Shown: positions 5,826 through 40,790, numbered from the stretch's first letter. The stretch: DNA of 64,000 nt from Bacteroidales bacterium (GCA_017962445.1 JAGCVI010000021.1:3751-67750); one strand, 5' to 3'. Numbers and translations: made by a program. The notes: generated from the sequence alone by a model not told the origin.

Positions 5826-5867
5826 GATTCTCTTTTTTTAATTGCCTAATTTGCCTATTCCTGGGGC

Positions 5868-6890
5868 TTACTTCAAGTTCTTTTTGTAGCAGGCCATGAA
5901 CTGCGGTATCACCGTCATCACGTCGCCTATTATCGTATAGTCGGCTATGGCGTTGATAGGTGCGTCGGGGTCGGTGTTTATGGAGATGATTTTCGAACTC
6001 TGCTCCATGCCGGCACGGTGCTGCACTGCGCCGCTGATGCCACAGGCTATGTACAGTTTCGGTCTCACCGTCACACCTGTCTGACCAATCTGGCGTTCGC
6101 CCTCGGCCCAGCCGGCGTCGACGGCTGCACGGGTGGCTCCCACGCTGCCGCCAATAAGGTGTGCGAATTTGTGCAGCAGTTCGAAGTTCTCCTTGCTGCC
6201 CATGCCGTAGCCGCCGGCAACGATTATCTGCGCACCTTTGATGTCTACCTTCTGCTCCTCTATCTCGCGGCTCAGAATCTCAACGGCCTTGTCGGCTTTC
6301 TCTAATGTGCTCTCCACGGCTACAGGTATGATTTCTCCCTTGTAGTTCGGGTCAAGGATTTCTTTCTTCATCACGCCCTCGCGAACGGTGGCCATCTGCG
6401 GACGTGTCTCGGGACATACAATCGTGGCTATGATATTGCCGCCAAAGGCGGGACGTATCTGCATCAGGATGTTGTCATACGTCTTCTGGTTCTTCACGTC
6501 CTCATGGCTGCCGATTTCAAGCGACGTGCAGTCGGCCGTAAGTCCGCAACGCAGGAACGACGCGATTCTCGGCGCCAGGTCGCGCCCTACCGACGATGCT
6601 CCGAAAAGCACGATGTCGGGTTTCTGTGCCTGTATCAGCTTCGAAAGCACGTCGAAGTGCGGCAGCGTTCTGTACGGCGACAGCCTTTTGTCGTCGGCCA
6701 TGAACACCTCGTCAACGCCATATGGATACAGCGTTTCTGCAGCTGCTCGCACGTCGCTGCCCAGCACTGCAGCCTGAAGCTTCACACCCAGGCGTGTCGC
6801 CAGCTGGCGTCCTTTCGTGCACAATTCCAAACTGATGTCGGCTATCTCGTTTTTCTCCGATAGCTCGCAGTATACTAAAACATTATTCAT
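5868..6890 (-). CDS. etfA: electron transfer flavoprotein subunit alpha
   Basis: 340 aa. C-terminal FAD-binding region reads PKLYIACGISGAVQHRAGM. Adjacent to etfB. Confidence 0.9.
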   Translation of the reverse strand: MNNVLVYCELSEKNEIADISLELCTKGRQLATRLGVKLQAAVLGSDVRAAAETLYPYGVDEVFMADDKRLSPYRTLPHFDVLSKLIQAQKPDIVLFGASSVGRDLAPRIASFLRCGLTADCTSLEIGSHEDVKNQKTYDNILMQIRPAFGGNIIATIVCPETRPQMATVREGVMKKEILDPNYKGEIIPVAVESTLEKADKAVEILSREIEEQKVDIKGAQIIVAGGYGMGSKENFELLHKFAHLIGGSVGATRAAVDAGWAEGERQIGQTGVTVRPKLYIACGISGAVQHRAGMEQSSKIISINTDPDAPINAIADYTIIGDVMTVIPQFMACYKKNLK

Positions 6891-14133: not shown

Positions 14134-15204
14134 ATGCCCGCAAACAAAAACACAGTAACACGATACTACATTCTGGATAAGTTGTTGGCCAACCGTTACC
14201 ATCACTATTCCGTAGAGGACTTGCGTCAGCATGTCAACGAGGAGCTGAAAGAACTCGGACAGGAACCTGTGAGCCGCCGCACCATTGAACTCGACCTGCA
14301 CTATCTGGAGTATGAAGGTCCTTTCCTCGCAGAGATTGAACATTATCAGATAGATGTTCCTAGTCAGAAAAACCCCAATAAGACGGTCAAGAAGAGCTGT
14401 CACCGTTACGCAGATCCTTCGTTCTCAATCTTCAAGAAAGAATTGAAGGAGGATGAGAAGTACCTCCTCTCCGAAGCCTTGTCTTTGCTGGGACAGTTTG
14501 AGGGCCTTCCTAATTTGGATGGTCTGGAGACCCTGCGGAAGAGTCTAGACGTGAAGACCGACCGTCAGATAATCTCCTTCACCAAAAACCCGTTGGAAAA
14601 CTCGACGCTGCTTGGCGAACTCTTCACGGCTATCTCGCAGAAACAGGTTGTGGAAATCCACTATCACCGCTTTGAAGCCCCTGATGAAGAACGGCAGATT
14701 ACAGTTCATCCCTATTCGCTCAAAGAATACAACCGCCGTTGGTATCTGATGGCGACAGCCGATACAGACAAAAAAATCTTGATCCTTGCTCTTGACCGCA
14801 TTGATAGTGTTGTGCCTCTGCCTGCCAAAGGGTACGCTTCCTTTGATGGCGACATTAGCGAACGCTTCGAGGACATAATCGGGGTGACGCTTCACGAAGA
14901 CCGCCCCGTGCAGCCCATCCTCTTTTGGGTCAGTGACCATTCCAAGGACTATGTCGCCACAAAGCCCATCCACGAATCCCAGCGGCACTACAGCGGCGAG
15001 CGTGAAAAGGGACTTCGTCAGCAGTACCCGATGCTTGAAGGTGGATACTTCTTCTCTATCGAATGCGTCGAGAACTATGAGCTTATACGCGAACTCACCT
15101 CCTTTGGCGAAGACCTGATTGTGCTATCGCCAGAAGATATCCAGCAGAAGGTGATCAACAAAATAAATGGAATGCGCAACAAATATGACTTTATTTGCAA
15201 ATGA
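14134..15204 (+). CDS. HTH-WYL-WCX transcriptional regulator (BrxR/CapW-like architecture)
   Basis: N-terminal wHTH-like segment (VSRRTIELDLHYLE). WYL core reads ITVHPYSLKEYNRRWYLMA...LALDRI. C-terminal extension reads YELIRELTSFGEDLIVLSP. Confidence 0.8.
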   Translation: MPANKNTVTRYYILDKLLANRYHHYSVEDLRQHVNEELKELGQEPVSRRTIELDLHYLEYEGPFLAEIEHYQIDVPSQKNPNKTVKKSCHRYADPSFSIFKKELKEDEKYLLSEALSLLGQFEGLPNLDGLETLRKSLDVKTDRQIISFTKNPLENSTLLGELFTAISQKQVVEIHYHRFEAPDEERQITVHPYSLKEYNRRWYLMATADTDKKILILALDRIDSVVPLPAKGYASFDGDISERFEDIIGVTLHEDRPVQPILFWVSDHSKDYVATKPIHESQRHYSGEREKGLRQQYPMLEGGYFFSIECVENYELIRELTSFGEDLIVLSPEDIQQKVINKINGMRNKYDFICK

Positions 15205-15219
15205 TTGCGAATTATTTTG

Positions 15220-15227
15220 TAATTTTG
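15220..15227 (+). promoter_or_regulatory. Bacteroidota-type -7 promoter box (TAnnTTTG)
   Basis: TAATTTTG lies 23 nt before the ATG at 15251. Confidence 0.5.
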
Positions 15228-15250
15228 CATTTCGATAATTCAACAGAATA

Positions 15251-16390
15251 ATGGACAATAAACCCACATTTATATCCCGAGACGGAATGATTGCCGACAG
15301 CAATTATGTTCAGTGGATAGCAAATATTAAATCGCGCTTTCAACAAAGTCAAATTAAAGCTGCTGTGAAGGTGAATACTTCGCTCCTGGAGTTTTACTGG
15401 AGCGTAGGACGTGACTTGGTAGCCCTTAAAGCAGAAGAGCGTTGGGGCAGCGGAATAGTTAAACAGTTTGCTTTGGATATGCGGAATGCTTTCCCTGATG
15501 CTAAAGGCTTCTCTGACACAAACGTGAAGTATATGAAGCGCTGGTATCTGTTTTATTATAAGCAAGTTGAAAAAGATCAGCAAGCTGTTGGCCTTTGGGA
15601 AGACCCTAAAGGTCGGCAAGATGCCGACCAAATCAAAGAGACAAAAAAAGGTCGGCAACTTGCCGACCAATTAGAAATGCCCGAAATATTTGGTCAAATT
15701 CCATGGTATCATCATATTCGTATAATCAGCCACTGCAAGACTCTCGACGAAGCCATGTTCTATATGAACAAGACGATAGAAGAGGGCTGGAGCCGCAGCT
15801 GGCTCGAAGACCAGATCGCTCAAAACCTATACCGCAACCAGGGCTCTGCTATTACAAACTTTGACATCGCCTTGCCTGCGCCGCAAAGCAAGTTAGCAAA
15901 AGAGATTCTGAAAAACGAATACAATCTTAGTTTTATCAATGCCGAGTGTGTGAGGCAAGAAAAAGACCTGGAAGAGGCTCTTGTCGCGAACGTCACACGT
16001 TTTCTTCTGGAACTAGGGAAGGGGTTTGCATACGTGGGCCGACAGATGGAATTGAGGATGGATGATGAAACGGCATTCTTCCCGGACTTGGTTTTCTATC
16101 ACATACCGCAAAAACGTTACGTCATTATAGAGTTGAAGGCAGTCAAGTTCGAGCCGGAGTTTGCCGGCAAGTTGAATTTCTATGTCACCGCTGCCGACAA
16201 GCTTCTTAGGGGCGACGGTGACAACGAATCGGTAGGCCTGATAATTTGCAAAACAGCAAAGAAGACTATTGTCGAGTGGTCGCTGAAAGACATTAACAAG
16301 CCGTTAGGAGTATCGACTTACCAACTTGAAGAAGTCGTTGCCCGCACTATAGCAGAACTGGAACAACAAAAAGAGAAAGCCCGCAAATAG
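15251..16390 (+). CDS. DUF1016/YhcG-family PD-(D/E)xK nuclease-like protein
   Basis: N-terminal YhcG-type pattern (LLEFYWSVGRDL...WGSGIVKQFALDM...GFSDTNVKYMKRWY). C-terminal nuclease core reads GKGFAYVGRQ...FPDLVFYH...VIIELKAVKF. Confidence 0.8.
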   Translation: MDNKPTFISRDGMIADSNYVQWIANIKSRFQQSQIKAAVKVNTSLLEFYWSVGRDLVALKAEERWGSGIVKQFALDMRNAFPDAKGFSDTNVKYMKRWYLFYYKQVEKDQQAVGLWEDPKGRQDADQIKETKKGRQLADQLEMPEIFGQIPWYHHIRIISHCKTLDEAMFYMNKTIEEGWSRSWLEDQIAQNLYRNQGSAITNFDIALPAPQSKLAKEILKNEYNLSFINAECVRQEKDLEEALVANVTRFLLELGKGFAYVGRQMELRMDDETAFFPDLVFYHIPQKRYVIIELKAVKFEPEFAGKLNFYVTAADKLLRGDGDNESVGLIICKTAKKTIVEWSLKDINKPLGVSTYQLEEVVARTIAELEQQKEKARK

Positions 16391-16407
16391 ATTGCGTGCA
16401 TTAGTCG

Positions 16408-16415
16408 TACTTTTG
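16408..16415 (+). promoter_or_regulatory. Bacteroidota-type -7 promoter box (TAnnTTTG) for the ATPase operon
   Basis: TACTTTTG lies 22 nt before the ATG at 16438. Confidence 0.5.
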
Positions 16416-16437
16416 CAAACGAAAACGAAATAGAAAA

Positions 16438-18021
16438 ATGAAAAATATGGAAAAACACAATCCTATTTTTAGTCTAAAGAATTTCCGTTCCTTTGGTGAA
16501 GAAGGTGCCGATTTTGAACTTGCACCAATTACCGTACTTACTGGATGTAATAGTGCCGGTAAAAGTTCTCTTGTGAAAGCATTGTTCCTTATGTCAATGC
16601 AAGGCAACAAACCAGGAGTGCTACCTATAAGCAACCTTCAAATATCATCTAAAGAATTAAATCTTGGAAGATTCGACAAAGTAATACACAAGAATGTAGA
16701 CGGAAAGATGATAAATCTATCATATAAAATGTGGTCGAATTATCTTCAAGAAACAGTAACGGTAAGCCGCTTCTTTGCCGAAAACAAGAACGATTTGCTT
16801 AACAATGGCGACCTTAAAATGTACACTATCGAGAAAGAAGACGGAACACTAATTTACCAGTATTGTCCAAAAGCTATTAACTATTCAGATCCATATATAG
16901 AAGAAAAGTATGAAGCAATCCAAAGCAATTTCACACGATTCTCCAAATCGTGCAGATACGTGGAATTAAAGCAAAAGCAAGCCATTTTAAGCCACAAAGA
17001 TTCGCTGAATAATGAAATGAAAGCCACCAAAGAAAGGATGGAAAAGGAACTGCTGGATTTTTCAAGTGAAATAGATATTATTAGGGTGGATGAGTATCCA
17101 GTCGAGTTGCTTAAAAAATTTGTAAATAGACATAATGAGGATGCAATAGTTGACTTGTATAAAGATTTATCCAAGGAGGAGAAAGAAAAGCTGGACTTCC
17201 AAGAATATTTTCAGCATGTTTGTAATGAAGTCATTGCACCATGGTTTATTAATGATATTGTATACGTGAATTCTTCTTCGGCTCAAATAGGCAGGGTTTA
17301 TGATATAAGTGACAGCAACAAGTTCTGCAAAGCTCTACACTCTTTAAATAACAAAACCGTAACATTCAAAGATAGTCTTCCTGTTGAAAGCTATTCAACA
17401 ACACACACGCCGCTCTCATTTGTCAATAAATGGATAAAGGCTTTCGGTATCGGTGATAGAATTGAGGTGGAAGGTACTATCGAAGGGTTAGGAGTCCTTA
17501 TCTATTTGATTAGGGGTAAAGAGAGAACATTACTTGCTGATGAAGGATATGGAATAACACAGTTAATATCGCTACTCATGCAAATTGATAATTCTATTCC
17601 TTTATATTTAGAAGGTAACCCTACTTTCAATCTAGAAAAATTTGAATATGATTACAGTAATTTAGATATGACATATCCGCATTATGTGATTTGTGTCGAG
17701 GAACCCGAGATACATTTACATCCTAAATACCAATCCTTGCTGGCAGACATGTTCTTGGAAGCTTACCAGAAATATAACATTCACTTCATTATCGAGACAC
17801 ATAGCGAGTATTTAATACGCAAACTCCAGGTAATGGTGGCCGATAAAGATAATACCATTACTTCCAATGAAGTTTCTCTTAATTATGTTGAGAAGGATGG
17901 GAATGGCGTGTCTACCAATCGCAAAATCGAGATATTGGAAGATGGCCGATTAAGTGAACCTTTTGGCCCTGGATTCTTTGATGAATCAAAATCCTTAGTC
18001 ATGCAAATGCTGAAATTCTAA
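16438..18021 (+). CDS. ABC/AAA_15-like P-loop ATPase with DUF3696-type C-terminus
   Basis: Walker A VLTGCNSAGKSS, signature-like LADEGYGITQ, Walker B VICVEEPEIHLHPKYQ, H-loop IIETHSEYLI, and C-terminal GPGFFDE. A long helical insert separates the two ATPase lobes. Confidence 0.8.
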   Translation: MKNMEKHNPIFSLKNFRSFGEEGADFELAPITVLTGCNSAGKSSLVKALFLMSMQGNKPGVLPISNLQISSKELNLGRFDKVIHKNVDGKMINLSYKMWSNYLQETVTVSRFFAENKNDLLNNGDLKMYTIEKEDGTLIYQYCPKAINYSDPYIEEKYEAIQSNFTRFSKSCRYVELKQKQAILSHKDSLNNEMKATKERMEKELLDFSSEIDIIRVDEYPVELLKKFVNRHNEDAIVDLYKDLSKEEKEKLDFQEYFQHVCNEVIAPWFINDIVYVNSSSAQIGRVYDISDSNKFCKALHSLNNKTVTFKDSLPVESYSTTHTPLSFVNKWIKAFGIGDRIEVEGTIEGLGVLIYLIRGKERTLLADEGYGITQLISLLMQIDNSIPLYLEGNPTFNLEKFEYDYSNLDMTYPHYVICVEEPEIHLHPKYQSLLADMFLEAYQKYNIHFIIETHSEYLIRKLQVMVADKDNTITSNEVSLNYVEKDGNGVSTNRKIEILEDGRLSEPFGPGFFDESKSLVMQMLKF

Positions 18022-18033
18022 AAACACATTATT

Positions 18034-19083
18034 ATGAAAAAACGGCTAATATACCTTCAATCTGGCTTTTGGAAAAAGATTAGGAAATGCGATAGTGTTG
18101 AAGACAAACGCATGTTTTGGGATTTATATGGAGCTTTGGAATGTTGTAATATTAAGGCTGACTTTACGTCAAGCGAATGGGCAGAAGATAAAGATGATTT
18201 ACTGTATTACTTGCTACAAAGCAGTTCTGATGGGAATGGGACGAAGATTGAATTTTGTGCCACTGAAAATATACAGGAAGCATTAGACTACACGAAAGAA
18301 CAGTCAATAGAGAATTTATGCGCTGCATTCCTTCTGGACGAAGAAACAAGGGTGTGTCTAGACCGAAGTAAAGAATTGGGAGTTTTGTGTTTAAACTCGG
18401 ATATGATAAAAGAGCATAAATTTGTTCGGGGTGATGCTGTTATGTATGAGAAAGGTGAGATGTTTGATAGATTTGACAAATGTAAAACAGCCCTTGCTTC
18501 TCCGTGCAATGCTATAATCTTAATTGATCCATATATACTGTTTAATAAATGGAGCGTTGAATTAAATTTAATTCCTTTGATGGATAAATGCTTACCGCCT
18601 GATCCCAAGAGGCAAGATGACCAGAAAATTGATTTTCATTTATCTATTCTTTCACAAACAAATCAATGTTTTATTGGCAAGTATAAAGATATACTTCGGT
18701 ATGAAAAGATTTATGACTATGTAAAAGAAGAAATCAGAAAGATTAGACCTAATATGAAATTAAAGTTTACTCTGTATCACACTAATACAACGGGTAATGG
18801 AGATGGGGATTTTCATAGCAGACATCTTGTAACAAATTGTATGCTTGTAAATTCCGAGGATGGTTTCGATTTTTTCGAAAATAAAAAGAATGAGTACACG
18901 GGGAAATGGGAAACGGTAAGTGGTAAACATGCTAGACTTGAGTTTCTATATCCTACACTACTTGATAATCGTCGTTTAGATGCTGATAATTATTATCGCT
19001 GGATAACACTGTCAGCAAACAATTGTGTCGATAATTCTTTGTGCTGGGGTGATAAAGAAAATCGATTGTTTGAATTAGTTTAA
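18034..19083 (+). CDS. hypothetical protein with MIT_C-like (PLD-fold) C-terminal region
   Basis: Starts 12 nt after the ATPase stop. LIDPYIL ... FHSRHLVTNCMLVNSEDGFDFF resembles, from memory, the MITD1 C-terminal domain motifs EDPYIR ... IHDREIRFNNGW..GRGLDYF. Not verified by profile search. Confidence 0.5.
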   Translation: MKKRLIYLQSGFWKKIRKCDSVEDKRMFWDLYGALECCNIKADFTSSEWAEDKDDLLYYLLQSSSDGNGTKIEFCATENIQEALDYTKEQSIENLCAAFLLDEETRVCLDRSKELGVLCLNSDMIKEHKFVRGDAVMYEKGEMFDRFDKCKTALASPCNAIILIDPYILFNKWSVELNLIPLMDKCLPPDPKRQDDQKIDFHLSILSQTNQCFIGKYKDILRYEKIYDYVKEEIRKIRPNMKLKFTLYHTNTTGNGDGDFHSRHLVTNCMLVNSEDGFDFFENKKNEYTGKWETVSGKHARLEFLYPTLLDNRRLDADNYYRWITLSANNCVDNSLCWGDKENRLFELV

Positions 19084-19087
19084 TAGC

Positions 19088-19981
19088 ATGGCGTACATTA
19101 CCAACGCAAATTTCCGAAGAATAACAAGAGAATTCGACGTTCCCAAAGACAAGAATTTCTCGTTTAACGATATCGTTATTTGGGAATCGCCCAATGGTAA
19201 AGTTGTTGACAAGAAAAATCCATATATCTTCAGTTGGTGGGAAGTCAATGAGTTGCTTACCTTTAAGGAATTCTGCAAGGATACAAAGATGGCTGTTGAG
19301 CACTTCTATAGAAAAATAGAGAAACCACTAGACAGCCTCAAGTACGTTGATCCAGAACGATGCCCTGCTTACCATTGTGATAGGAACTGCGAGGCTATGC
19401 ATTCATCTCTTCAACGAATAGAAATACCAGAAGAAATAAGAGAACAAGGAAAAGATAAAGTACAGGAATTCCGAAAATGGTGGAAAAGTAACGAGAGTAT
19501 TCGAGAAGAAAAGCCCGATGCTTTTGTGGCCAAACTTAATTTAGCGTTTGGTACAAAGCTTCATGGTTATGAGGTTGAGGACAAAAGCAACTCTGGGGTT
19601 CATGACATGACAGACAATCGTTCTATCAAAGAGATAAATCAAGAAATACGCACGAAGTTTAATGATTTGTTTAAATGGGCAAAAGATGAAGAAAGAAGGA
19701 AAAAGATTTTTGTGAAATTCAAATTCCTATCTTTTTTGGGGGATAGTGATTATCCAATACTAATCGACACTGGCAATTTCACTGAAAGTGAGATTAAAAC
19801 CGTTTTGAGAGATGTGCATTCAAGGAAAAAAGAAATTGTTGAAGAACTCAAAAAGTTATATCAGAGAAGGTACATCCCCGATTTAAACTTTCAGACCTCA
19901 TTGCTAGAGAACCTCGGTTTTGTTCCTTGCTACACCTGTATGGGTGGCATTGCTGAAGAGCATGTTTTTGATGAGGAATGA
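19088..19981 (+). CDS. hypothetical Cys-rich protein, third gene of the ATPase operon
   Basis: Starts 4 nt after the preceding stop. Contains CPAYHCDRNCEAMH and C-terminal CYTC clusters. No family recognised. Confidence 0.5.
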   Translation: MAYITNANFRRITREFDVPKDKNFSFNDIVIWESPNGKVVDKKNPYIFSWWEVNELLTFKEFCKDTKMAVEHFYRKIEKPLDSLKYVDPERCPAYHCDRNCEAMHSSLQRIEIPEEIREQGKDKVQEFRKWWKSNESIREEKPDAFVAKLNLAFGTKLHGYEVEDKSNSGVHDMTDNRSIKEINQEIRTKFNDLFKWAKDEERRKKIFVKFKFLSFLGDSDYPILIDTGNFTESEIKTVLRDVHSRKKEIVEELKKLYQRRYIPDLNFQTSLLENLGFVPCYTCMGGIAEEHVFDEE

Positions 19982-20245
19982 AAGAAACGCGTTTTTTTAC
20001 ATAAAATTATTTATAAACCGGAATCTTGTCACTGCATTAGACATCCTGTTTGCGTGACGGGGTATCGTCAGGATGTCTGTTGATAAAAAAATGCCGTTTG
20101 ACAATGAGACGTTTGACACTGGGCGGGTGCTCTGCAAATTGATAGTCAGGTAATTATAATGTTGTGTTATGTTGTTGATATACAAATAGATGCACGCGGT
20201 TTATAACTTCCGCCCTATGTTTAAAAAGTGAACGCTTTTCCGCTG

Positions 20246-20253
20246 TAACTTTG
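20246..20253 (+). promoter_or_regulatory. Bacteroidota-type -7 promoter box (TAnnTTTG) for the retron-like transcript
   Basis: TAACTTTG lies about 30-40 nt upstream of the a1-like arm of the ncRNA. Confidence 0.5.
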
Positions 20254-20283
20254 CAAACGAAATTGCACGCTAAAGAGTTCTTT

Positions 20284-20588
20284 GAAACAGTTGTCACCCA
20301 TTAGTCTGAATTAGAAACTTCCGGCTGTTTACCAGTCGGTCGCCGTCTGCTGCAATCGGCAGATTCCGGGCGGTGGACTTCCGGTCCATGCAGGCCCGCA
20401 TAGCAATGTCGCTTCACCGGCGGTCCGCGTCTACAACCGTGGCGCGGCGTCGTGCGGCCTTAGTGACGAGGGATAGCCAGGCAAGAGCCGAGTTGTCCCC
20501 CGGCATCATCCCGCGCTCCACAACTCGGCTCTTGCCTGGGTTCAGGGGACATATCTGAAGTAATGGGGGACAGGGTGGCAGCTGTTTT
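20284..20588 (+). ncRNA. retron msr-msd-like non-coding RNA
   Basis: GC-rich non-coding stretch immediately 5' of a retron-type RT. Has a perfect 20-bp stem (20477-20496 / 20520-20539, 23-nt loop). Flanking a1/a2-type pairing is either 20291-20303 with 20561-20573 or 20284-20299 with 20573-20588. CACCCATTAG at 20295-20304 mirrors the Ec86 CACCCTTAG branch-G context. Confidence 0.6.
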
Positions 20589-20642
20589 GGGAACCGGCGG
20601 ATGGATGCAGGGAGTCGGAATAGTTCAAATGTATAATTCAAA

Positions 20643-21785
20643 ATGAAGAAAGTGGCTGAAATAACTGACAGGAGAGCGGAAGTCAAGGCTGCGGAGACGC
20701 GAATCCATGACCTGTGGAGTTGCCTTCACACTAAGAGGGACCTCCTCAGGCTGGTGAACGTTGCGCTTGAAGGTCTGTATGGCATGGACGCGAGAACGGT
20801 CACGATGAGGCAGTTGAACCTATCCGCATACTCCTCGCTTAATGCGCACAGGTACCGCACTTTCCAAATTCCTAAGAAGAGGAAAGGCGAGTTCCGCACT
20901 ATCGACGCGCCTGACCCCACGCTGAAATACATACAGCAGGGGCTGAACTTTGTGCTGCAGACCGTCCACACTCCCCATCCCGCCGCAATGGGCTTTGTTC
21001 CTCACCGTTCAACGGTGACAGGTGCAAAAGTGCATCTGGGCCAGAGGTTTGTGTATAATATCGACCTAAAGGACTTCTTCCACACCGTCACGTCGGGGCG
21101 GCTATACAAGCGTCTGACTTTGGAGCCGTTCTGTCTGGACGGCGAGGTGGCAGGCCTAATCACTGACCTCTGCTGTTACATGGGTCCCGACGGAAGAAAC
21201 GTGCTGCCTATGGGCGCTCCCACGTCGCCTGCGGTGACAAACATAATCTGCGAGCGTATGGACGGAAAACTATCACGGCTGGCTAGGGTATACGGCTTGA
21301 AATACTCACGCTACGCCGACGACATCACCTTCAGCGGAATGGCGGATGTCTTCGCCGAGGACGGACGTTTCATCATGTCGATGCGCAACATCATCGTGAA
21401 TGAGGAAGGCTTCACCATCAATCCCGAAAAGACTAGGCTCTGCCACTGGGGTATGCGCCAGGAGGTCACTGGCATCACGGTGAACAGCAGGGAGAATGTC
21501 CCGCGGAAGTACGTAAAGCAGTTGCGGACAATGATTCACAACTGGGAGATGGACGGACACGACAAGGCTCAGGCTGTCTTCGAGAAGTACTATATGGAGC
21601 AGAACTACACGCACAATCCCGATGTGAAGCACCATATCGAGAACGTTGTCGCAGGGAAACTTCTGTACCTCAAAATGGTGAAGGGCGAGACTGACCCGAC
21701 ATACAGGGCCCTCGACCGCAGGTTCAGAGCCCTGACGGAAACAGGCGGGCGGGATACGCAAGGAACTGGAAAAAACAGATTATAA
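20643..21785 (+). CDS. retron-type reverse transcriptase
   Basis: RT motifs 1-7: FQIPKKRKGEFRTIDAP, NIDLKDFF, LPMGAPTSPAVTN, YSRYADDITFSG and INPEKT. Also has the retron-typical RQEVTGITVN (VTG) segment. Confidence 0.85.
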   Translation: MKKVAEITDRRAEVKAAETRIHDLWSCLHTKRDLLRLVNVALEGLYGMDARTVTMRQLNLSAYSSLNAHRYRTFQIPKKRKGEFRTIDAPDPTLKYIQQGLNFVLQTVHTPHPAAMGFVPHRSTVTGAKVHLGQRFVYNIDLKDFFHTVTSGRLYKRLTLEPFCLDGEVAGLITDLCCYMGPDGRNVLPMGAPTSPAVTNIICERMDGKLSRLARVYGLKYSRYADDITFSGMADVFAEDGRFIMSMRNIIVNEEGFTINPEKTRLCHWGMRQEVTGITVNSRENVPRKYVKQLRTMIHNWEMDGHDKAQAVFEKYYMEQNYTHNPDVKHHIENVVAGKLLYLKMVKGETDPTYRALDRRFRALTETGGRDTQGTGKNRL

Positions 21786-21806
21786 AGAATAATACAGTAT
21801 AACACA

Positions 21807-22712
21807 ATGAAACTGAATAAGCTTTTATACCATATCAGGGAGAAGGAGGACTGCATCCCTACAGGAATACCGAGCCTCGACGAACTGACTGGCGGCCTGC
21901 CTGTGGGCGGCATAACAGCCCTTGCTGCACGCCCATCGATGGGCAAGACTCCCTTTGCGATGACAGTGGTGCGAAACGCCGGAATCATTGGCAGGATTCC
22001 CACAGCGGTCCTTTCTTTTGAGGACGACAGTGAATATGTCGCCAAGCGCCTTCTTGCTACCCAGATAGGATGGGACGCGGTGAAATCGATGGAGCACGAT
22101 CCTGTCAGGCTCACAGCTGAGCAGAAGGAGAAAATCGGGAAACTGGAGCAGATAGGCTTCATATCGCAGAATATTGAAGACTCTAGTTTCCTCGAAAAGA
22201 TGAAGGAAGCCCCGGTGTGGATTGAACACGATGCCTATGTGACGATGGACGAGCTGGTGAGCAAGATTGAACGCCTGAAACGCGAGAACAACATCAGCTT
22301 GCTGGTCATTGACAACTTCGGGCATATCGCTATGGACGGCTATGCTTCCGACAAGGAACATAAGATGCAGAAACTGCTACAAACCGCAGAGCGGCTTAAG
22401 ATTGCCGTGCTTGTGACGGCAAGGGTGCTGCGGAGTGTAGAGACTCGCGGCGGAACAAAAAAGCCGATGCTTTCTGATATTGAGAATGAGGCATTTCTCG
22501 AAAACTACGCATCGCTGATAGTGTTCCTATACCGCCCGGAATACTACTGCATCTTTGAGGACGAATACGGTTCTACACTTAACAAGGCCTATGCCATCGT
22601 TGCCCGCAATAAGCGCGGCGACATTGGCGAGGTGAGCCTTGATTTTGTAAAAAAGGCTAGGTTCGCCGACTGGACCCCGATTAATAAAACATTTAATAAG
22701 ATAATAATATGA
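21807..22712 (+). CDS. DnaB C-terminal-domain-like (RecA-fold) P-loop ATPase lacking the DnaB N-terminal domain
   Basis: IPTGIPSLDELTGGL...AARPSMGKTPFAM (Walker A) and LLVIDNFGHI (Walker B) align by eye with E. coli DnaB GVPTGFTDLD...AARPSMGKTTFAM...LIMIDYLQL. Only about 20 aa precede the ATPase core. Starts 21 nt after the RT stop. Confidence 0.75.
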   Translation: MKLNKLLYHIREKEDCIPTGIPSLDELTGGLPVGGITALAARPSMGKTPFAMTVVRNAGIIGRIPTAVLSFEDDSEYVAKRLLATQIGWDAVKSMEHDPVRLTAEQKEKIGKLEQIGFISQNIEDSSFLEKMKEAPVWIEHDAYVTMDELVSKIERLKRENNISLLVIDNFGHIAMDGYASDKEHKMQKLLQTAERLKIAVLVTARVLRSVETRGGTKKPMLSDIENEAFLENYASLIVFLYRPEYYCIFEDEYGSTLNKAYAIVARNKRGDIGEVSLDFVKKARFADWTPINKTFNKIII

Positions 22713-23311
22713 TACCAGGTAATTCTGAATTATTAAAATGCCCGTTTTGCGGCGAAGAAAAGGAAGTGCTGACATTGCTTTCAGGGAACACTTGCAATGG
22801 CCAGCAATGGTCTGACATGAAAAGCATATATCCTATGTTGCCAAAGGTTTCTCCCATTCAGAAATGCCCTTCCTGCGGCAAATACTATTTCACTAAGGAT
22901 GCGGAGAAGCGACAGGGTAAGGCCTACAGCCTTGAGAAAGGCGACCTTACATACACGCAGCTGAAAGAAGCGGCAGTCCAGTTCGGTGACGAAATATCCA
23001 AAGAAGACCGATTTGTCCTTGACTTGCTTCTGCTGTGGGCGTACAACGACCTCTACAATAGGGAAGACGTGAATATAACGGATGCACCCGCCGAGGAGAA
23101 AGCGTATATTGATACTGTCCTTGACAGGCTGGTAGAAAGGGAGGATATTGACAATATTATGAAGGCTGAATTCTACAGGGAAATGGGCCTTTTCGTCTAT
23201 GTGCCTCTGCTAATCAGTCAGCTTAATATTGAAGACCCATTCCTCAGAGATGTCGCCAAGCGTATCCACGACTACGCTAAGTGCAAGAAAAGCATAGCAT
23301 TTAAAATATAA
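22709..23311 (+). CDS. hypothetical zinc-ribbon protein
   Basis: ATGA start/stop overlap with the ATPase gene. N-terminal CPFC...CPSC four-Cys ribbon followed by a helical region. No family recognised. Confidence 0.55.
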   Translation: MIPGNSELLKCPFCGEEKEVLTLLSGNTCNGQQWSDMKSIYPMLPKVSPIQKCPSCGKYYFTKDAEKRQGKAYSLEKGDLTYTQLKEAAVQFGDEISKEDRFVLDLLLLWAYNDLYNREDVNITDAPAEEKAYIDTVLDRLVEREDIDNIMKAEFYREMGLFVYVPLLISQLNIEDPFLRDVAKRIHDYAKCKKSIAFKI

Positions 23312-35800: not shown

Positions 35801-35835
35801 CATTTAATTAAAATTTTCAATAATATTTAACATTT

Positions 35836-37203
35836 ATGGGATTCAAGCCGAAAGAAAACAGCAGCGCCCAGCTTTTGAGACTTCCAGAGGCTGTTTTCAG
35901 CCAGGAGCAGTTTGTCGACGATGTCTTCAACGACGACTACATACTAGTTGTCGGCAGCGAGGTTGTGATGAATACAGACGAGGAGTGCACTGGCGATGTG
36001 AAGCGTTACATTCTTAATTCAATCAACAGCAAGCTGGGCACTGATTACAACAGTTTCGACGACCTGTATAGATATGTAGGCCGCGGCATCGACCCTGTCC
36101 GCAACATCCTCTATTCAGAAGACTTCACATACAGTGTTGACGACCTCTCGCCCGAATTGCGTCGATTGTTCGAAACCAAGTTGTTCCGCTTTGTGATGAC
36201 CACTACTTTCGACAGCTATCTTGAGGTGCTGATGGAGTATGTGTGGGGCAAGGGCGGCTACAGTGTGGTGAATATGGGCGACAAGGCCAGTGTCGACAGG
36301 CTGCGCAACGAATTGGCCGAGTGTCGCGAGGGCGACCGCTATATGCAACCGACGCTGTTTTACATTTTCGGGAAAGCAGAGAAGGATGAATCCAAGAGTT
36401 ATGTACGCAACGACGACGACGCTATTCAAATAATCGACAAATGGATTCAGCTGCCTAAGGACGACCCAATGGTGCGCCATATCCGCAACAAGAAAATCCT
36501 TGCCCTCGGCTGCAAGTTCGACGACTGGTATTTCCGTTTCTTCTGGTACAATCTCAAGCGCGACATCAGCCGCCTGCGCGAAGGTCAGGTGGCCTTTATG
36601 CTCGACGAGAACGACACGACGGATGCTAAACTCGACACCTTCCTGAAACATTCGATGATATACCGCCATAAGGATGTTCGTGCCTTCATGTCACATATTG
36701 CAGAACTGCTTACCTCAACTGAACACGATAATCCTTTGCACGATATGGTTGTCAGGAAACGTCGTGAGGGCGGTGTGTTCCTCTCCTATTGCAGCAAGGA
36801 TTTCATTATGGCCAGCCGACTGTTCTTCATGCTTCAGCGTGAAGGTTTCGATGTGTGGTTCGACAATATGCGTCTAAAAGGTGGCGACGATTACAACGGC
36901 GACATCGAGAACGCTATTGGCAAGGCCAAAGTATTTGTGCCGCTGCTCACACCCAGTGTCGCTGCCGACCTCACCGCAGGCGAAACAGATAATTATTACA
37001 ATAAGGAGTGGCTTATGGCGGCGCAAACTGGCGACAAGGCTTTCGTGCCTGTGGCCGCAAACGGCTACAACCTGCGTGAAGACTACCATACGAAAGGCTT
37101 CGAACCGTTCACGTCAACCAGTAATTCCGGCATAGACCTTATGGGTCGTGACGGCTGCAAGAAGTTGATAGAGTCAATCACCAAACATCTGCACAGACTA
37201 TGA
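35836..37203 (+). CDS. SIR2-like (SIR2_2-type) N-terminal domain fused to a C-terminal TIR domain
   Basis: N-terminal segments ILVVGSEV, FVMTTTFDSYLE, LFYIFGK and ILALGCKFDDWYF follow the SIR2_2 layout, but the usual HG reads FG. C-terminal GGVFLSYCSKD...GFDVWFD...GGDDYNGDIENAIGKAKVFVPLLT is TIR-like. Confidence 0.7.
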   Translation: MGFKPKENSSAQLLRLPEAVFSQEQFVDDVFNDDYILVVGSEVVMNTDEECTGDVKRYILNSINSKLGTDYNSFDDLYRYVGRGIDPVRNILYSEDFTYSVDDLSPELRRLFETKLFRFVMTTTFDSYLEVLMEYVWGKGGYSVVNMGDKASVDRLRNELAECREGDRYMQPTLFYIFGKAEKDESKSYVRNDDDAIQIIDKWIQLPKDDPMVRHIRNKKILALGCKFDDWYFRFFWYNLKRDISRLREGQVAFMLDENDTTDAKLDTFLKHSMIYRHKDVRAFMSHIAELLTSTEHDNPLHDMVVRKRREGGVFLSYCSKDFIMASRLFFMLQREGFDVWFDNMRLKGGDDYNGDIENAIGKAKVFVPLLTPSVAADLTAGETDNYYNKEWLMAAQTGDKAFVPVAANGYNLREDYHTKGFEPFTSTSNSGIDLMGRDGCKKLIESITKHLHRL

Positions 37204-40200
37204 CTACACAACGCACCAATCCATGGGCCGGTCTGGCATCGTATCAGGACCCCGCAACAGCCGATATCAAGTTGAAGTTCTGTGGTCGCGACAACGAGAG
37301 CTACGATGTTGCACGGCTAATTGACGATAATATCTGCGTCACCCTCTATGGCAAGAGCGGCACTGGCAAGACCTCGCTGCTCAACGCAGGTGTATTTCCG
37401 CGTCTACGTCGCCAGCAGTATCTGCCGGTCGCCATACGTCTTGCAATGGATGCCCGCGAGTGTGGCTTCCAACACTGCGTCATAGAACTTGTGTTGAAAG
37501 CTGCCGCCGCTGCCGCGGCTACGGTGCAGACGGTTGATGTGGTTCCGATGCCTGCCGACGAGAAGACCGATGACTATCTGTGGCATTTTTTCGCCCGCAG
37601 CCGCTTTGTCGGCGCCGATGGACAAGTGCTGTTCCCCGTGATGGTCTTCGACCAGTTCGAGGAGGTGTTCCGTGGCCGCCGTGACGAGGCCGAAGTGCTG
37701 CTGCGGCAAATCCATTTCATGATGGACGAGAGCCATACGCTCGCCGACCGTATGGTCGACGGGCAGCCCTACAGCTATGACTTCAATTTCCGCTTTGTGT
37801 TGTCGCTTCGTGAGGACGATCTCTACCGCCTTGAAGACTGCATCGACAACTGCTACCTGCCAGAAATGAAGCGTTGCCGCTACCGTTTGCGAAGCCTTTC
37901 GGAGAGCGCCGCACGTGATGTGGTGTTGATCCCTGGCGAGGGGCTGTTTTGGTCCGGTGAACAGGAAACTGTTGCAAAGACCATTGTCGACACCGCACGC
38001 AACAAAGAGGAGCACACTATAAGCACAAACATATTGTCGCTCATCTGCAGCCGCATCTTTGTCGAATGGCAAAAGAGTGGGGCAGAGTTCATACAGCCAT
38101 CGTTGGTGGAAGGGTTTGTCAAGGGCAACCCCTTTGAACGATTCTACGACGAGGCTACGCGAGGCTTCTCGAATCGAGAGAAGACCTATATTGAAGAGCA
38201 TTTTGTCGACAGCGATGGTCGTCGCAACTCTGTTCCCGAAAAAGACTTGCAGCATAACATATCAAACTGGAAACGCCTACTCGAGGGCGACAACCGCATA
38301 CTACAACGCATATCGTCATCAGCCGACAGCAGCAGCTACCGTGTTGAGTTGTTGCACGACTCGTTTTGCAAGCCACTGCTCGGACAAAAAGAAAAACGTG
38401 CAAAACGCAGACGGTTGAAATGGCTGGCGCTATGTTTGGCGTTGCTTGCCGTGTGCTTTGGAATTGCAGTGCTGATAGTTTACTTGAACAATAGGAACAG
38501 GCTAAATGAAGCAACTATTTCGCAGCATGAAAGTACCATCGCGGAGCAGAACAAACAACTTGCGGAGCAGAACAAACAGCTTTTGTCAGAAAGTGACTCT
38601 TTAAAAAGTGCTTTTTTACTTGTCGACAAAACCAACAGATTGTTGTTGGATCGAGAACGTGAATTGTTGGCTACAAACGAAGGCTTATTGGTTGGACAGT
38701 CAAAAATTATTGCAGGACATGCTGTAAGAATTGCAGATGAGGGTGATTCCTATATGGCTCGTTTGCTTGCGTTGGAATCTTTAAAGCGAGCCTATACCTC
38801 TGAAGCGGAAAGCGCACTTCGCAATGCTTGCAATCACAACACGGCAATTCTGAAAGGACATACTTCTTCTGTGAACTCCGCTTCTTTTAGCTACGACGGC
38901 AAACGCATTGTATCGGCATCGTCGGACGGCACAATCCGTATTTGGGATGCCGCAACCGGTCGCTGTTTAAGAACATTGAAAGGACATTTCAATTATGTGT
39001 TTTCCGCCGCTTTCAGTCCTGATGACAAACGTATTGTCTCGGCATCAGATGACAATAACGTCCGCATCTGGGATGCCGCCACCGGTCGCTGCATAGATAC
39101 CTTGAAAGGACATACTAGATGGGTGATGTCCACCGCCTTCAGTCCCGACGGCAAACGCATAGTCTCGGCATCAAAGGACAAGACCATCCGCATCTGGGAT
39201 GCCGCCACCGGTCGTTGTATTGATACGTTGAGAGGAAATACCAGAGATGTTAACTATGCTGCTTTCAGTCCCGACGGCACACGCATAGTTTCGGCATCGT
39301 CCCACAACATCAACATCTGGGATGCCGCTACAGGTCGCTGTATAGACACGTTGAAAGGGCATACCAATATTGTGAACTCCGCAGTCTATAGTCACGACGG
39401 CACACTCATAGTTTCGGCATCGTTTGACGGTACCGTTCGCATCTGGGATGCTGCCACTGGTCGTTGCATAGATACGTTGAAAGGGCATACCTATATTGTA
39501 GGATCTGCCGTCTTCAGTCGCGACGACACACGCATAGTTTCAGCATCTGGGGGGAAGGACAATACCATCCGCATCTGGGATGCCGCCACCGGTCGCTGCA
39601 TTGAAACGCTGAGAGGACATACCGGAAGTTTTAACTCTGCTGCTTTCAGTCCCGACGGCACACGTATAGTTTCGGTATCGGGGGAGAGTGACAATACCAT
39701 CCGTATTTGGGATGCTGTCACTTTCAGTTACTGCAAGAATACGTTAAAACATTATAATCCGTATTCTGCTGTTTTCAGTCGCGACGGCACACGCATAGTT
39801 TCGGCATCGGGGGGGGATAACACCATCCGCATCTGGAATGCAACCACTGGTCGCTGCATAGATACATTGAAAGGGCACGCAAATACTGTTTATTCCGCTA
39901 CATTCAGTCCCGACGGCAAACGCATAGTTTCGGCATCGGGAGACAGAACCATCCGCATCTGGAATGCAACCACTGGTCGCTGCATACGAACATTGAAAGG
40001 ACATACACGGGGAGTTATATATGCTTCTTTTAGTCCTGACGGCAAACGCATAGTCTCGGCATCGAGTGATCGTACTGTTCGCATTTGGGATGTCGCTACC
40101 GACCGTTGCATAGATACATTGGAAGGACATACCAATGGCGTGAACTTCGCTGCCTATAGTCCCGACAATAAACACATAGTTTCGGCATCGAATGACGGCA

Positions 40201-40694
40201 CTGTCCGCATTTGGGATGTCGCTACCGGCCGTTGCATAGATACATTGGAAGGACATAATAATACCGTACACTCCGCTGCCTATAGTCCCGACAATAAACG
40301 CATAGTCTCGGCATCGTGTGACAATACAGTTCGCATCTGGGATGCCGTTACCGGTCGCTGTATACGGACATTAGAAGGGCATACAAATTGGGTGTATTCC
40401 GCCTTTTTTAGTTATGACGGCAAACACATAGTTTCGGCATCGTGGGACAAAACCATCCGTATCTGGGATGCCGCCACTGGTTGCTGCATACAGACATTGA
40501 AAGGACATACATGGAGAGTAAAATCCGCCGCTTTCAGTCGCGATGGCAAACGCATAGTCTCGACATCGGAAGACGGAACTGTTCGTATTTGGAATTTTCC
40601 GCGACTTGCGGATTTGATAAAGCTGACTTGCGATCGCTTCGAGGACAGACCCTTGACACCCGAAGAACGCAGAACCTACTATATAGACAATTGA
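37200..40694 (+). CDS. STAND-type P-loop NTPase - single TM helix - coiled coil - 14x WD40 repeat protein
   Basis: ATGA overlap with the TIR gene. N-terminal WAGLASYQD...FCGRDNE...LYGKSGTGKTSLLNAGVFPRL (Walker A) and VMVFDQFEEVF (Walker B) are typical of WD40/TPR-fused STAND NTPases. TM helix is WLALCLALLAVCFGIAVLIVYL. Carries 14 GH...WD units. Confidence 0.85.
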   Translation: MTTQRTNPWAGLASYQDPATADIKLKFCGRDNESYDVARLIDDNICVTLYGKSGTGKTSLLNAGVFPRLRRQQYLPVAIRLAMDARECGFQHCVIELVLKAAAAAAATVQTVDVVPMPADEKTDDYLWHFFARSRFVGADGQVLFPVMVFDQFEEVFRGRRDEAEVLLRQIHFMMDESHTLADRMVDGQPYSYDFNFRFVLSLREDDLYRLEDCIDNCYLPEMKRCRYRLRSLSESAARDVVLIPGEGLFWSGEQETVAKTIVDTARNKEEHTISTNILSLICSRIFVEWQKSGAEFIQPSLVEGFVKGNPFERFYDEATRGFSNREKTYIEEHFVDSDGRRNSVPEKDLQHNISNWKRLLEGDNRILQRISSSADSSSYRVELLHDSFCKPLLGQKEKRAKRRRLKWLALCLALLAVCFGIAVLIVYLNNRNRLNEATISQHESTIAEQNKQLAEQNKQLLSESDSLKSAFLLVDKTNRLLLDRERELLATNEGLLVGQSKIIAGHAVRIADEGDSYMARLLALESLKRAYTSEAESALRNACNHNTAILKGHTSSVNSASFSYDGKRIVSASSDGTIRIWDAATGRCLRTLKGHFNYVFSAAFSPDDKRIVSASDDNNVRIWDAATGRCIDTLKGHTRWVMSTAFSPDGKRIVSASKDKTIRIWDAATGRCIDTLRGNTRDVNYAAFSPDGTRIVSASSHNINIWDAATGRCIDTLKGHTNIVNSAVYSHDGTLIVSASFDGTVRIWDAATGRCIDTLKGHTYIVGSAVFSRDDTRIVSASGGKDNTIRIWDAATGRCIETLRGHTGSFNSAAFSPDGTRIVSVSGESDNTIRIWDAVTFSYCKNTLKHYNPYSAVFSRDGTRIVSASGGDNTIRIWNATTGRCIDTLKGHANTVYSATFSPDGKRIVSASGDRTIRIWNATTGRCIRTLKGHTRGVIYASFSPDGKRIVSASSDRTVRIWDVATDRCIDTLEGHTNGVNFAAYSPDNKHIVSASNDGTVRIWDVATGRCIDTLEGHNNTVHSAAYSPDNKRIVSASCDNTVRIWDAVTGRCIRTLEGHTNWVYSAFFSYDGKHIVSASWDKTIRIWDAATGCCIQTLKGHTWRVKSAAFSRDGKRIVSTSEDGTVRIWNFPRLADLIKLTCDRFEDRPLTPEERRTYYIDN
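38850..40597 (+). repeat. 14 tandem coding repeats of about 126 bp (WD40 units) with high nucleotide identity
   Basis: Recurring LKGHTxxVxSAxFSPDGKRIVSASxDxTIRIWDAATGRCIDT. Strings such as cgcatagtttcggcatcg and atccgcatctgggatgccgc recur many times. Confidence 0.9.
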
Positions 40695-40782
40695 CAATTG
40701 ATTAACAATAGAGAAATCGACACGCAAAATAAAAAAAATCACATAAATAAAAATATTTTTTGCCTACGTCGCAAAAAGTTCG

Positions 40783-40790
40783 TACCTTTG
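40783..40790 (+). promoter_or_regulatory. Bacteroidota-type -7 promoter box (TAnnTTTG)
   Basis: TACCTTTG lies 40 nt before the iorA ATG. Confidence 0.5.

Follow-up and report, generated by a model that had tools for sequence, protein, structure and literature searches.

Can an NLR-like immune switch of a bacterium be wired through the membrane to a sensor that faces outwards? This question is raised by two overlapping genes, termed P1 and P2, in a 64,000-nucleotide (nt) stretch of DNA from a Bacteroidales bacterium (GCA_017962445.1, JAGCVI010000021.1:3751-67750; the whole stretch is referred to below as the window). The STAND/NLR-like receptors of bacterial immunity that have been characterised to date all detect phage proteins inside the cell (PMC13581612, a 2026 survey of STAND proteins). 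P1 joins a SIR2-like fold to a TIR domain, and P2 encodes an nSTAND1 nucleoside triphosphatase (NTPase), a transmembrane (TM) helix, a helical stalk and an array of WD40 repeats (Table 1). We read the pair as a conflict system of two genes that was acquired horizontally, is most probably directed against phages or other invaders, and combines a membrane-spanning NLR-like receptor with a separate TIR effector, and place the probability of this reading at roughly 0.55. A first-pass annotation, made from the sequence alone, had given the coordinates, lengths and ATGA overlap of the two open reading frames (ORFs), all of which were re-found exactly, and had proposed a split system of STAND-WD40 sensor and TIR effector, a proposal that the domains, co-conservation and accessory status of the pair support.

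The P1 family, comprising proteins of about 455 amino acids (aa) with SIR2_2 and TIR_2 domains, falls into 322 clusters when grouped at 90 % identity, the majority of them from metagenome-assembled genomes (MAGs) of Bacteroidales and Prevotella. An exhaustive profile search recovered 239 clusters at 50 % identity (E<=1e-30), nearly all of 430-530 aa and matching end-to-end, and more than 1,700 homologous clusters exist for the NTPase and TM part of P2. A survey restricted to one genome per species yielded 43 loci, all in gut or rumen Bacteroidales MAGs with the exception of two with Firmicutes labels (Lachnospiraceae, L017; Clostridium, L027); the genes of these two are Bacteroidales-like and the labels probably reflect mis-binning, rare transfer being the alternative. 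An nSTAND1 homologue adjoins the P1 homologue in 42/43 loci, the exception being a contig end, and usually lies directly downstream on the same strand. Among 37 scorable junctions, fifteen are overlaps (ten of these by 4 nt) and twenty are gaps of 0-25 nt, with most distances falling between -14 and +22 nt. The identities of the P1 and nSTAND homologues to the window proteins co-vary across the loci (Spearman 0.79), and a reverse look-up from six NTPase homologues with differing C-termini found a TIR_2 gene of 440-490 aa directly upstream in 6/6. The pair and its overlap, surveyed across the Bacteroidales, are thus co-conserved, and no third gene was found to be conserved with them as a downstream effector, either in the 43 loci or in the look-ups from the NTPase side. 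The observation is confirmed not to be a product of chance, since the profile matches exceed the curated thresholds and the pair recurs in dozens of genomes. A cultured betaproteobacterium, Paraburkholderia caribensis MBA4, carries the same overlapping pair, with a P1 identity of only 21 %. In this strain the pair (L137 3552-9065; NZ_CP012748.1) is unannotated in the PLSDB gene table and sits just downstream of a protein with MAP3K_TRAF_bd and TPR-S domains, another conflict-linked combination.

The N-terminal half of P1 scores 25.7 bits against the Pfam family SIR2_2 (aa 120-271; cut-off 24.5), and the AlphaFold2 model of the protein (predicted local distance difference test score, pLDDT, 85; predicted template-modelling score 0.85) retrieves for this half, using Foldseek, KomC (8zsf; E 3.6e-8; template-modelling score to target 0.63), as well as ThsA and DSR2. 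Profile and fold search both indicate a Rossmann-type SIR2 fold. The canonical SIR2 residues, namely the Asn of TTNYD, the His of HG and the GAG loop that binds nicotinamide adenine dinucleotide (NAD), are missing from P1. The first-pass annotation had noted FG at the HG position of a SIR2_2-like layout, which is read here as F178-G179, and had called the module possibly degenerate; it is degenerate throughout the family. In 126 diverse family representatives the His site is never occupied by His and mostly by Phe (113/126), the Asn site retains Asn in 3/126, and G225, W231 and R234 are essentially invariant. The Paraburkholderia homologue carries the same substitutions in its SIR2 motifs. According to the titles of their entries, KomC(H146N) and DSR2(H171A) were deposited as inactive enzymes, the mutated residue in each being the SIR2 catalytic His. 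Lacking the Asn, the His and the third Gly of GAG, the SIR2-like half is predicted to be a family-wide pseudo-enzyme. Because the His has been lost from all of the 126 representatives and the Asn from all but three, the fold appears to be a conserved non-catalytic module, probably serving as a scaffold, as a docking surface for the NTPase, or as an autoinhibitory module or lid.

The C-terminal half of P1 had been recognised as a clear TIR domain, in agreement with a Pfam TIR_2 match at aa 314-409 (51.1 bits; cut-off 28) and with a fold match to the SARM1 TIR domain (Foldseek; template-modelling score to target 0.70-0.73). The nearest solved TIR sequences are those of TIR-1/SARM1, and E391 of P1 pairs with the Glu of the SARM1 'WVHKE' motif, which we take to be the catalytic E642. 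Both the TIR fold and the Glu expected of a TIR NADase are therefore present, and the latter is retained in 125/126 family representatives. Since the Glu is kept while the SIR2 catalytic residues are lost, the TIR domain is likely to be the conserved catalytic module of P1, and probably cleaves NAD. The converse arrangement, with the SIR2-like domain as the real effector by means of a non-canonical active site and the TIR domain as a mere oligomerisation adaptor, would fit the SIR2-like half being as strongly conserved as the TIR half, including the invariant G225, W231 and R234, and the role of SIR2 domains as NADase effectors in ThsA, DSR2 and KomC. It is nevertheless very improbable, given that the residues mutated in DSR2 (H171A) and KomC (H146N), together with the Asn, are replaced in essentially the whole family, in which the TIR Glu persists.

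The TIR domain might instead produce a nucleotide signal, such as a cyclic isomer of adenosine diphosphate ribose, for a remote effector or for the pseudo-SIR2 domain itself, with the receptor otherwise unchanged. The TIR proteins of bacterial Thoeris systems make signalling molecules, the layout of P1 superposes on that of ThsA (SIR2 and SLOG) over about 530 alignment columns, a conserved inactive SIR2 fold could keep a nucleotide pocket, and genes for ThsB-type TIR, CHAT and patatin proteins are frequent neighbours of the pair. However, a third gene is conserved nowhere across the 43 loci and the pair is inserted alone in the window; the reading of GAG as GSE and the loss of the Asn and His argue against a normal NAD-type pocket, and the TIR domain lies nearest to SARM1-type hydrolases. 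Signal production thus appears unlikely, and depletion of NAD+ is favoured on two grounds, namely that the pair is not accompanied by a conserved third gene and that its TIR domain is closest to the hydrolases.

The partner protein was searched against Pfam with its first 554 residues alone, the WD40 matches swamping a scan of the whole protein, and matched nSTAND1 (PF20703) at aa 8-269 (E 5e-19; 69.5 bits; cut-off 27.1). The same family was found above threshold in ten of ten P2 homologues tested. A STAND NTPase signature with a Walker B motif had already been read in P2; it can now be assigned to the nSTAND1 clade, and the fold searches agree. The Walker motifs are intact, GKSGTGKTS and hhhhDQFEE (h, hydrophobic) being invariant or nearly so in the homologue alignment. 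The AlphaFold2 model of residues 1-545 (pLDDT 89.5) contains a module of nucleotide-binding, helical and winged-helix domains, for which Orc1/Cdc6-type ATPases and SSO1545 are the closest solved folds. The plant TIR-NLR WRR4A and SAMD9 follow only further down in the Foldseek results, so that the predicted module appears to be without a close solved relative.

Behind the NTPase lies a 22-residue hydrophobic helix (aa 408-429; mean Kyte-Doolittle value 3.1), and in the model the last NTPase element runs into a continuous helix (aa 387-513) that takes in this segment together with roughly 80 residues of stalk. A strongly hydrophobic helix is present in 145/156 NTPase homologues of at least 460 aa, right behind the NTPase (median start residue 411), and is separated from the first WD repeat by a median of 73 aa. 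It appears to be a conserved hallmark of the family. The 15-aa flanks of the helix differ in charge, with on average 6.99 Lys and Arg residues on the N-terminal side versus 2.71 on the C-terminal side, and with the N-terminal flank the richer in 142/145 proteins, as in bitopic proteins of N-in/C-out orientation. By the positive-inside rule, the Lys/Arg-rich flank faces the cytoplasm. Furthermore, the NTPase must be cytoplasmic, since this is where both ATP and P1, which has no signal sequence, are found. The domains that follow the TM helix are interchangeable among homologues and include WD40, TPR, FGE-sulfatase (C-type-lectin-like), penicillin-binding protein (PBP) transpeptidase-like, peptidase M23, 5'-nucleotidase C-terminal, BspA-type leucine-rich repeat (LRR) and PD40 domains, as well as regions with multiple TM segments. 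The PBP transpeptidase-like, peptidase M23, 5'-nucleotidase C, BspA LRR and PD40 domains are typical of the periplasm or cell surface. On the basis of the charge bias and of these domain types, the C-terminal region, including the WD40 array of P2, is most likely extracytoplasmic or periplasmic. The first-pass annotation had listed a TM helix and coiled coil in a membrane-spanning protein; hydropathy and the model confirm both, and the description can be sharpened to a likely extracytoplasmic WD40 sensor.

A classical intracellular sensor for which the membrane is no more than a tether, its helix being an anchor or re-entrant segment and its WD40 repeats binding phage proteins in the cytoplasm as in Avs and bNACHT, would accord with the experimentally characterised bacterial STAND defence proteins, all of which sense cytoplasmic phage proteins (PMC13581612). 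It would also accord with the existence of WD40 sensors in cytosolic STAND proteins and with the minority of homologues in which a TM helix is not detectable. We hold it to be quite unlikely, considering that a single, very hydrophobic helix of 22 residues is flanked by about 7 Lys/Arg residues on the NTPase side as opposed to about 2.7, with this bias in 142/145 proteins, that the model shows a straight helix without a break across this segment, and that ectodomains of these types usually occur outside the cytoplasm.

The family includes further variants beyond the TM helix. Many short paralogues (650-750 aa; among them P0126, P0131 and P0182) share a conserved C-terminal domain of about 150 aa without a Pfam match (consensus ...P.LVYL.L.SKS....EKQ.WF.LY......Q..KLY.ILY.E...L), which may occur more often in the family than any other ectodomain. 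In L012 (11362-12660) the partner stops right after the TM helix (432 aa) and has no ectodomain, and in L032, L034, L041, L043 and L044 between three and six extra TM segments replace the soluble ectodomain.

The fourteen WD40 blades counted at first pass are borne out by three approaches, with fourteen stretches matched in Pfam, a 126-bp repeat present in 13.6 copies (74 % match) according to Tandem Repeats Finder, and fourteen repeats in a manual split. The mean pairwise identity among the repeats is 66 %, and variation falls mainly in a few columns, with the highest entropy just after the GH and just before the conserved Asp. These columns line the top, ligand-binding face of a WD40 propeller, and highly similar repeats with focused variation are familiar from fungal NLRs.

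The pair is absent from the same site in close relatives. Eighty metagenomic contigs were fetched with the radical-SAM protein encoded immediately upstream, and in nine contigs from the closest relatives (radical-SAM protein 83-89 % and iorA 96-99 % identical) the site is empty without a trace of the pair, with the radical-SAM gene and iorA adjacent and 98-177 nt apart. The insertion begins directly behind the radical-SAM stop codon (35801), ends near 40740, from which point the conserved promoter region of iorA can again be aligned, and holds exactly two genes; the spacer at 35801-35835 is likewise missing from the empty-site relatives. Neither a target-site duplication nor terminal inverted repeats of at least 8 nt were found at its borders. 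Elsewhere, the radical-SAM, SBF-transporter and iorA genes flank the pair in a single relative with 85 % identity, and the radical-SAM gene is not beside the pair in 41/42 other loci. The window locus itself is identical to one on a 95-kb ENA scaffold. Given the nine empty sites, and given that homologues turn up in unrelated surroundings, which are often islands of defence or mobile genes, the pair cannot be called a universal core gene, and the sequence comparisons support its interpretation as an accessory, horizontally acquired unit. The radical-SAM gene was considered as a viperin-like component and rejected, as its match is generic (33 bits versus a cut-off of 180), it is unlinked to the pair elsewhere and it is present at the nine empty sites. 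Carriage of the pair by phages, viral contigs or plasmids was also rejected, the sole match in the plasmid collection being a 2.5-Mb Paraburkholderia replicon and IMG/VR and INPHARED yielding no matches.

The site between the radical-SAM gene and iorA (window 35801-40740) is a variable hotspot, which is empty in the nine relatives and is occupied by the pair both in the window and in a single relative. The same site in L058 and L059 (about 4722-6498) contains a gene for a 545-aa AAA_14/DUF4143-like ATPase, a family that also neighbours the pair in L050 and L139, and in L068 (3654-8302) it contains a gene for a BspA-like LRR protein and other ORFs.

At other loci the neighbours of the pair include ThsB-type TIR and TPR genes, and genes for CHAT, TIR-FGE-sulfatase, patatin, PrsW, RyR and TerB proteins, together with AbiEii, Cas1/Cas2, RhuM, VapE-like primases and an integrase. 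Some loci also contain two paralogous pairs, in tandem or close together, whose C-termini differ, such as WD40 beside FGE-sulfatase forms or WD40 beside short forms (a GCA_016648615.1 contig; L139 1-9962; L008 5369-13343). In L139 the upstream gene that overlaps another nSTAND1-WD40 gene encodes a longer protein (at least 720 aa), a hint that the effector, too, can vary. These neighbourhoods bear on whether the pair acts in immunity at all. It could alternatively serve envelope signalling or kin/non-kin recognition, responding to peptidoglycan or surface status or to contact with competitors, for example through type VI secretion, with the TIR domain as a regulatory output. Ectodomains with an origin in peptidoglycan enzymes (PBP transpeptidase-like, M23) and the nucleotide-binding 5'-nucleotidase C domain are in line with such a role, as are the housekeeping genes that flank the pair in the window and the occurrence of similar WD40 repeats with focused variation in fungal allorecognition NLRs. 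The patchy presence of the pair among near-identical backgrounds, its often being found in islands that hold recognised defence and mobile genes, and its tandem paralogues with different sensors are, however, the signature of conflict systems rather than of housekeeping regulators, and a TIR NADase would be a costly regulatory output. A role outside immunity is accordingly judged improbable.

In the mechanism that we infer for the conflict system, which extends to its topology, the P1-P2 interaction, ligand, NADase output and immune role, P2 would be a bitopic inner-membrane protein, with its NTPase switch inside the cell and a stalk of about 80-110 residues carrying a double WD40 propeller into the periplasm. 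P1 would remain cytosolic, its SARM1-like TIR half keeping the catalytic Glu. A ligand outside the cytoplasm, candidates being phage components that cross the periplasm, envelope damage or other invaders, would bind the variable propeller faces and cause the receptors to cluster, upon which the NTPase modules would exchange nucleotide and oligomerise in an NTP-dependent manner beneath the membrane. The TIR domains of P1 could thereby be gathered into active assemblies that cleave NAD+, so that the attacked cell would stop growing or die. Stated more broadly, the family may comprise outward-looking bacterial NLR-like receptors, in which a STAND NTPase is wired via one TM helix to interchangeable extracytoplasmic sensors and switches on a cytosolic pseudo-sirtuin/SARM1-like TIR NADase. 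Such receptors would unite Toll-like and NLR logic and would detect attack by phages or others in the periplasm, either before the genome enters or as it does so. This wider generalisation is tentative, and its chances are somewhat below even.

Several points weigh against the proposed conflict system. A TAnnTTTG box (the Bacteroidetes-type -7 element) was found neither in the 35-nt gap before P1, as had been noted at first pass, nor in the 340 nt upstream of it, and iorA, downstream of the pair, has its own box of this type (TACCTTTG at 40783). Given the housekeeping flanks and the lack of a recognisable promoter of its own, expression of the pair in this genome is uncertain, and the radical-SAM gene may be the source of its transcription. 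PADLOC v2 holds no model for the pair, for which reason its defence role is assigned by association, through inspection of the neighbourhoods of about a dozen loci. The empty searches of IMG/VR and INPHARED tell in the same direction, and most of the family sequences derive from MAGs. The topology is deduced from the positive-inside rule and the ectodomain types, 11/156 of the homologues of at least 460 aa have no clear TM helix, some homologues have several TM segments, and WD40 arrays of the G-beta type are best known from cytosolic STAND proteins. Finally, NAD+ depletion and signal production are not separable on the basis of sequence alone.

Comparison with PADLOC returned no known system. 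Thoeris, Avs, bNACHT, retron-TIR and all other PADLOC systems were rejected as assignments for the pair, with weak matches at the level of the TIR domain and none for the NTPase. The pair resembles Thoeris (ThsA, SIR2-SLOG; ThsB, TIR) in its SIR2 and TIR folds, and both halves of P1 can be superposed on ThsA, but in Thoeris the TIR protein makes the signal and the SIR2 domain is the NADase, whereas P1 holds both folds in one protein with a SIR2 domain that is predicted to be dead. Moreover, a SLOG domain is lacking, the partner gene encodes a STAND NTPase, and the matches of P1 to ThsB profiles (E 0.004-0.03) and to the NCBIfam Thoeris type III ThcB4 profile (17 bits; cut-off 220) are weak. 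Avs and bNACHT likewise combine an effector, a STAND NTPase and a repeat sensor, with TIR and SIR2 among their known effectors and activation by oligomerisation expected. They are, however, single cytosolic polypeptides that sense cytoplasmic phage proteins, the effector of the window pair is a separate gene, and its NTPase matched none of the PADLOC Avs or the NACHT profiles, so that it belongs to neither group.

The closest parallels are the nSTAND1 conflict systems. The nSTAND1 clade was defined computationally as STAND proteins fused to FGS sensors and to N-terminal TIR or adaptor domains, the sensors being assumed to bind invader molecules (Kaur et al., eLife 2021; PMC8195603). The PF20703 clade, TIR effector, C-terminal FGE-sulfatase (FGS) sensor and modular, multi-copy design are shared with the present family. 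In the published systems, which come mainly from multicellular bacteria, the effector or adaptor forms the N-terminal part of a fusion and the sensor is taken to encounter its invader molecules inside the cell, whereas the window pair has a separate, overlapping upstream effector gene with a pseudo-SIR2 domain and a conserved TM helix between NTPase and sensor, and occurs in gut Bacteroidales and Paraburkholderia. Doré et al. (2024) described nSTAND1-FGE proteins as targets of diversity-generating retroelements and predicted one NACHT-lectin protein to be periplasmic, and a bNACHT preprint remarked, from computational analysis, that NACHT proteins of the TM type may sense membrane or periplasmic signals. 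The 2026 STAND survey (PMC13581612) tested single-gene systems against phages, with sensors that recognise phage proteins inside cells, and the architecture of the pair is not mentioned in its accessible text. The first-pass annotation had known of no experimental description, and in the open literature on SIR2-TIR fusions, membrane-anchored STAND proteins and Bacteroidales TIR-STAND systems none was found; a family of pseudo-SIR2/TIR proteins paired with nSTAND1-TM-ectodomain proteins is not described there.

Likenesses to eukaryotic proteins can also be drawn. SARM1 and TIR-1 are the closest solved TIR domains, with an aligned Glu and a large non-catalytic N-terminal module that may hold the TIR domain inactive; SARM1 uses its own ARM and SAM domains and senses nicotinamide mononucleotide and NAD+, whereas P1 has a SIR2 fold and is presumably controlled via its STAND partner. 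Animal Toll-like receptors share the repeat ectodomain, single TM helix and cytoplasmic TIR output, which makes ligand-induced clustering a natural model, but in the window pair the TIR domain is on a separate, probably enzymatic protein and a STAND NTPase stands between it and the TM helix; homology of the ectodomain or TM helix is not implied. Fungal NLRs of the HNWD/HET-E type share a STAND NTPase and near-alike WD40 repeats with variation on the binding face, but are cytosolic members of the NACHT clade that act in allorecognition and have neither a TM helix nor a TIR partner. Zorya and Kiwa are phage defence systems that detect attack at the cell envelope. The idea of detection at this level is common to the window pair, although the proteins are unrelated (a motor-like ZorAB complex; KwaAB) and include neither a STAND NTPase nor a TIR domain.

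Table 1. Features of the P1/P2 locus and of the separate defence island in the window (aa, amino acids).
Feature	Position	Strand	Description and basis
P1 ORF	35836..37203	+	455 aa, ATG start; predicted cytosolic effector, pseudo-SIR2 then TIR
SIR2-like domain (SIR2_2 fold)	35905..36729	+	aa ~24-298; predicted catalytically dead; Foldseek and profile alignment to KomC
G40-S41-E42	35947-35964	+	in place of GAG; profile alignment to KomC
T122-T-T124-F-D126	36199-36213	+	in place of TTNYD, Asn replaced by T124; profile alignment to KomC
F178-G-K	36364-36378	+	in place of HG; strand ending in catalytic His reads I-F178-G-K; KomC alignment
LGCKFDDWYFRFFWY	36505-36549	+	conserved stretch of SIR2-like domain; holds G225, W231, R234
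TIR domain	36760..37200	+	aa ~309-455; Pfam TIR_2, Foldseek
TIR strand A	36769-36801	+	GGVFLSYCSKD
TIR BB-loop	36874-36894	+	LKGGDDY
Putative catalytic Glu E391	36994-37011	+	within YYNKEW
ATGA overlap	37200..37203	+	P1 stop and P2 start; sequence
P2 ORF	37200..40694	+	1164 aa, ATG start; predicted bitopic receptor: nSTAND1 NTPase, TM helix, helical stalk, 14 WD40 repeats
nSTAND1 module	37200..38357	+	aa 1-386, predicted cytoplasmic; includes helical and winged-helix-like subdomains
N-terminal motif NPWAGLASYQDP	37218-37253	+	followed by FCGRD
Walker A	37350-37376	+	GKSGTGKTS, aa 51-59
Walker B	37638-37664	+	VMVFDQFEE, aa 147-155
Juxtamembrane and TM region	38388..38501	+	KEKRAKRRRLK (aa 397-407), TM helix WLALCLALLAVCFGIAVLIVYL (aa 408-429), NNRNR (aa 430-434)
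Helical, coiled-coil-like stalk	38496..38831	+	aa ~433-544; model: one continuous helix aa 387-513, helices at 517-544
AEQNKQL x2	38541-38582	+	in-frame 21-bp tandem duplication in stalk, adding exactly one heptad; Tandem Repeats Finder
WD40 repeats (14)	38850..40622	+	aa 551-1141; enough for two 7-bladed propellers; predicted extracytoplasmic ligand-binding domain
Left junction of insertion	35801..35835	+	AT-rich 35-nt spacer, radical-SAM stop to P1 start; alignment with empty-site contigs L057, L060, L065
Right junction of insertion	40695..40740	+	likeness to empty-site iorA upstream region restarts at ~40740; alignment
WYL-WCX regulator	14134-15204		defence island
YhcG/DUF1016 PDDEXK nuclease	15251-16390		defence island; matches PADLOC candidate PDC-S02, 419 bits
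NsnB-like AAA_15/AAA_21-DUF3696 ATPase	16438-18021		defence island
Two ORFs without family match	18034-19981		defence island; 349 and 297 aa
Retron-type reverse transcriptase	within 20643-23311		only 380 aa; best PADLOC matches RT-Protease_XI and RT-TIR_XII, ~330 bits; no fused effector
DnaB_C/KaiC-like ATPase	21807-22712		301 aa; after reverse transcriptase
Zinc-ribbon-like ORF	22709-23311		200 aa; overlaps DnaB_C/KaiC-like gene

The housekeeping surroundings and host-like composition reported for the pair at first pass hold locally, with a GC content of the pair (0.49-0.53) that equals that of the surrounding window; the description does not extend to a separate defence island of low GC content (0.36-0.45) at 14134-23311, about 13 kb upstream of the pair. 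Its last part (20643-23311) may be a variant of a retron or of a defence-associated reverse transcriptase system with an unlisted effector; an Rfam scan of the window detected no RNA families and hence no associated non-coding RNA.

The pair is not a new category of immune system, and is distinguished by its split effector with a pseudo-sirtuin and by the conserved TM wiring to a swappable and probably outward-facing sensor. If this reading is true, NLR-type switches would also work as transmembrane receptors, and the pair would provide a simple two-gene model for turning ligand binding outside the cell into TIR activation inside it. The swappable ectodomains suggest a toolbox for different envelope-level cues, and the conserved dead sirtuin on a live TIR domain would be a test case for the regulation of NADases by pseudo-enzymes. 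Experiments are made feasible by the cultured representative P. caribensis MBA4. Among the Bacteroidales of gut and rumen, where phage-host and interbacterial conflict shape the microbiome, the family is common.

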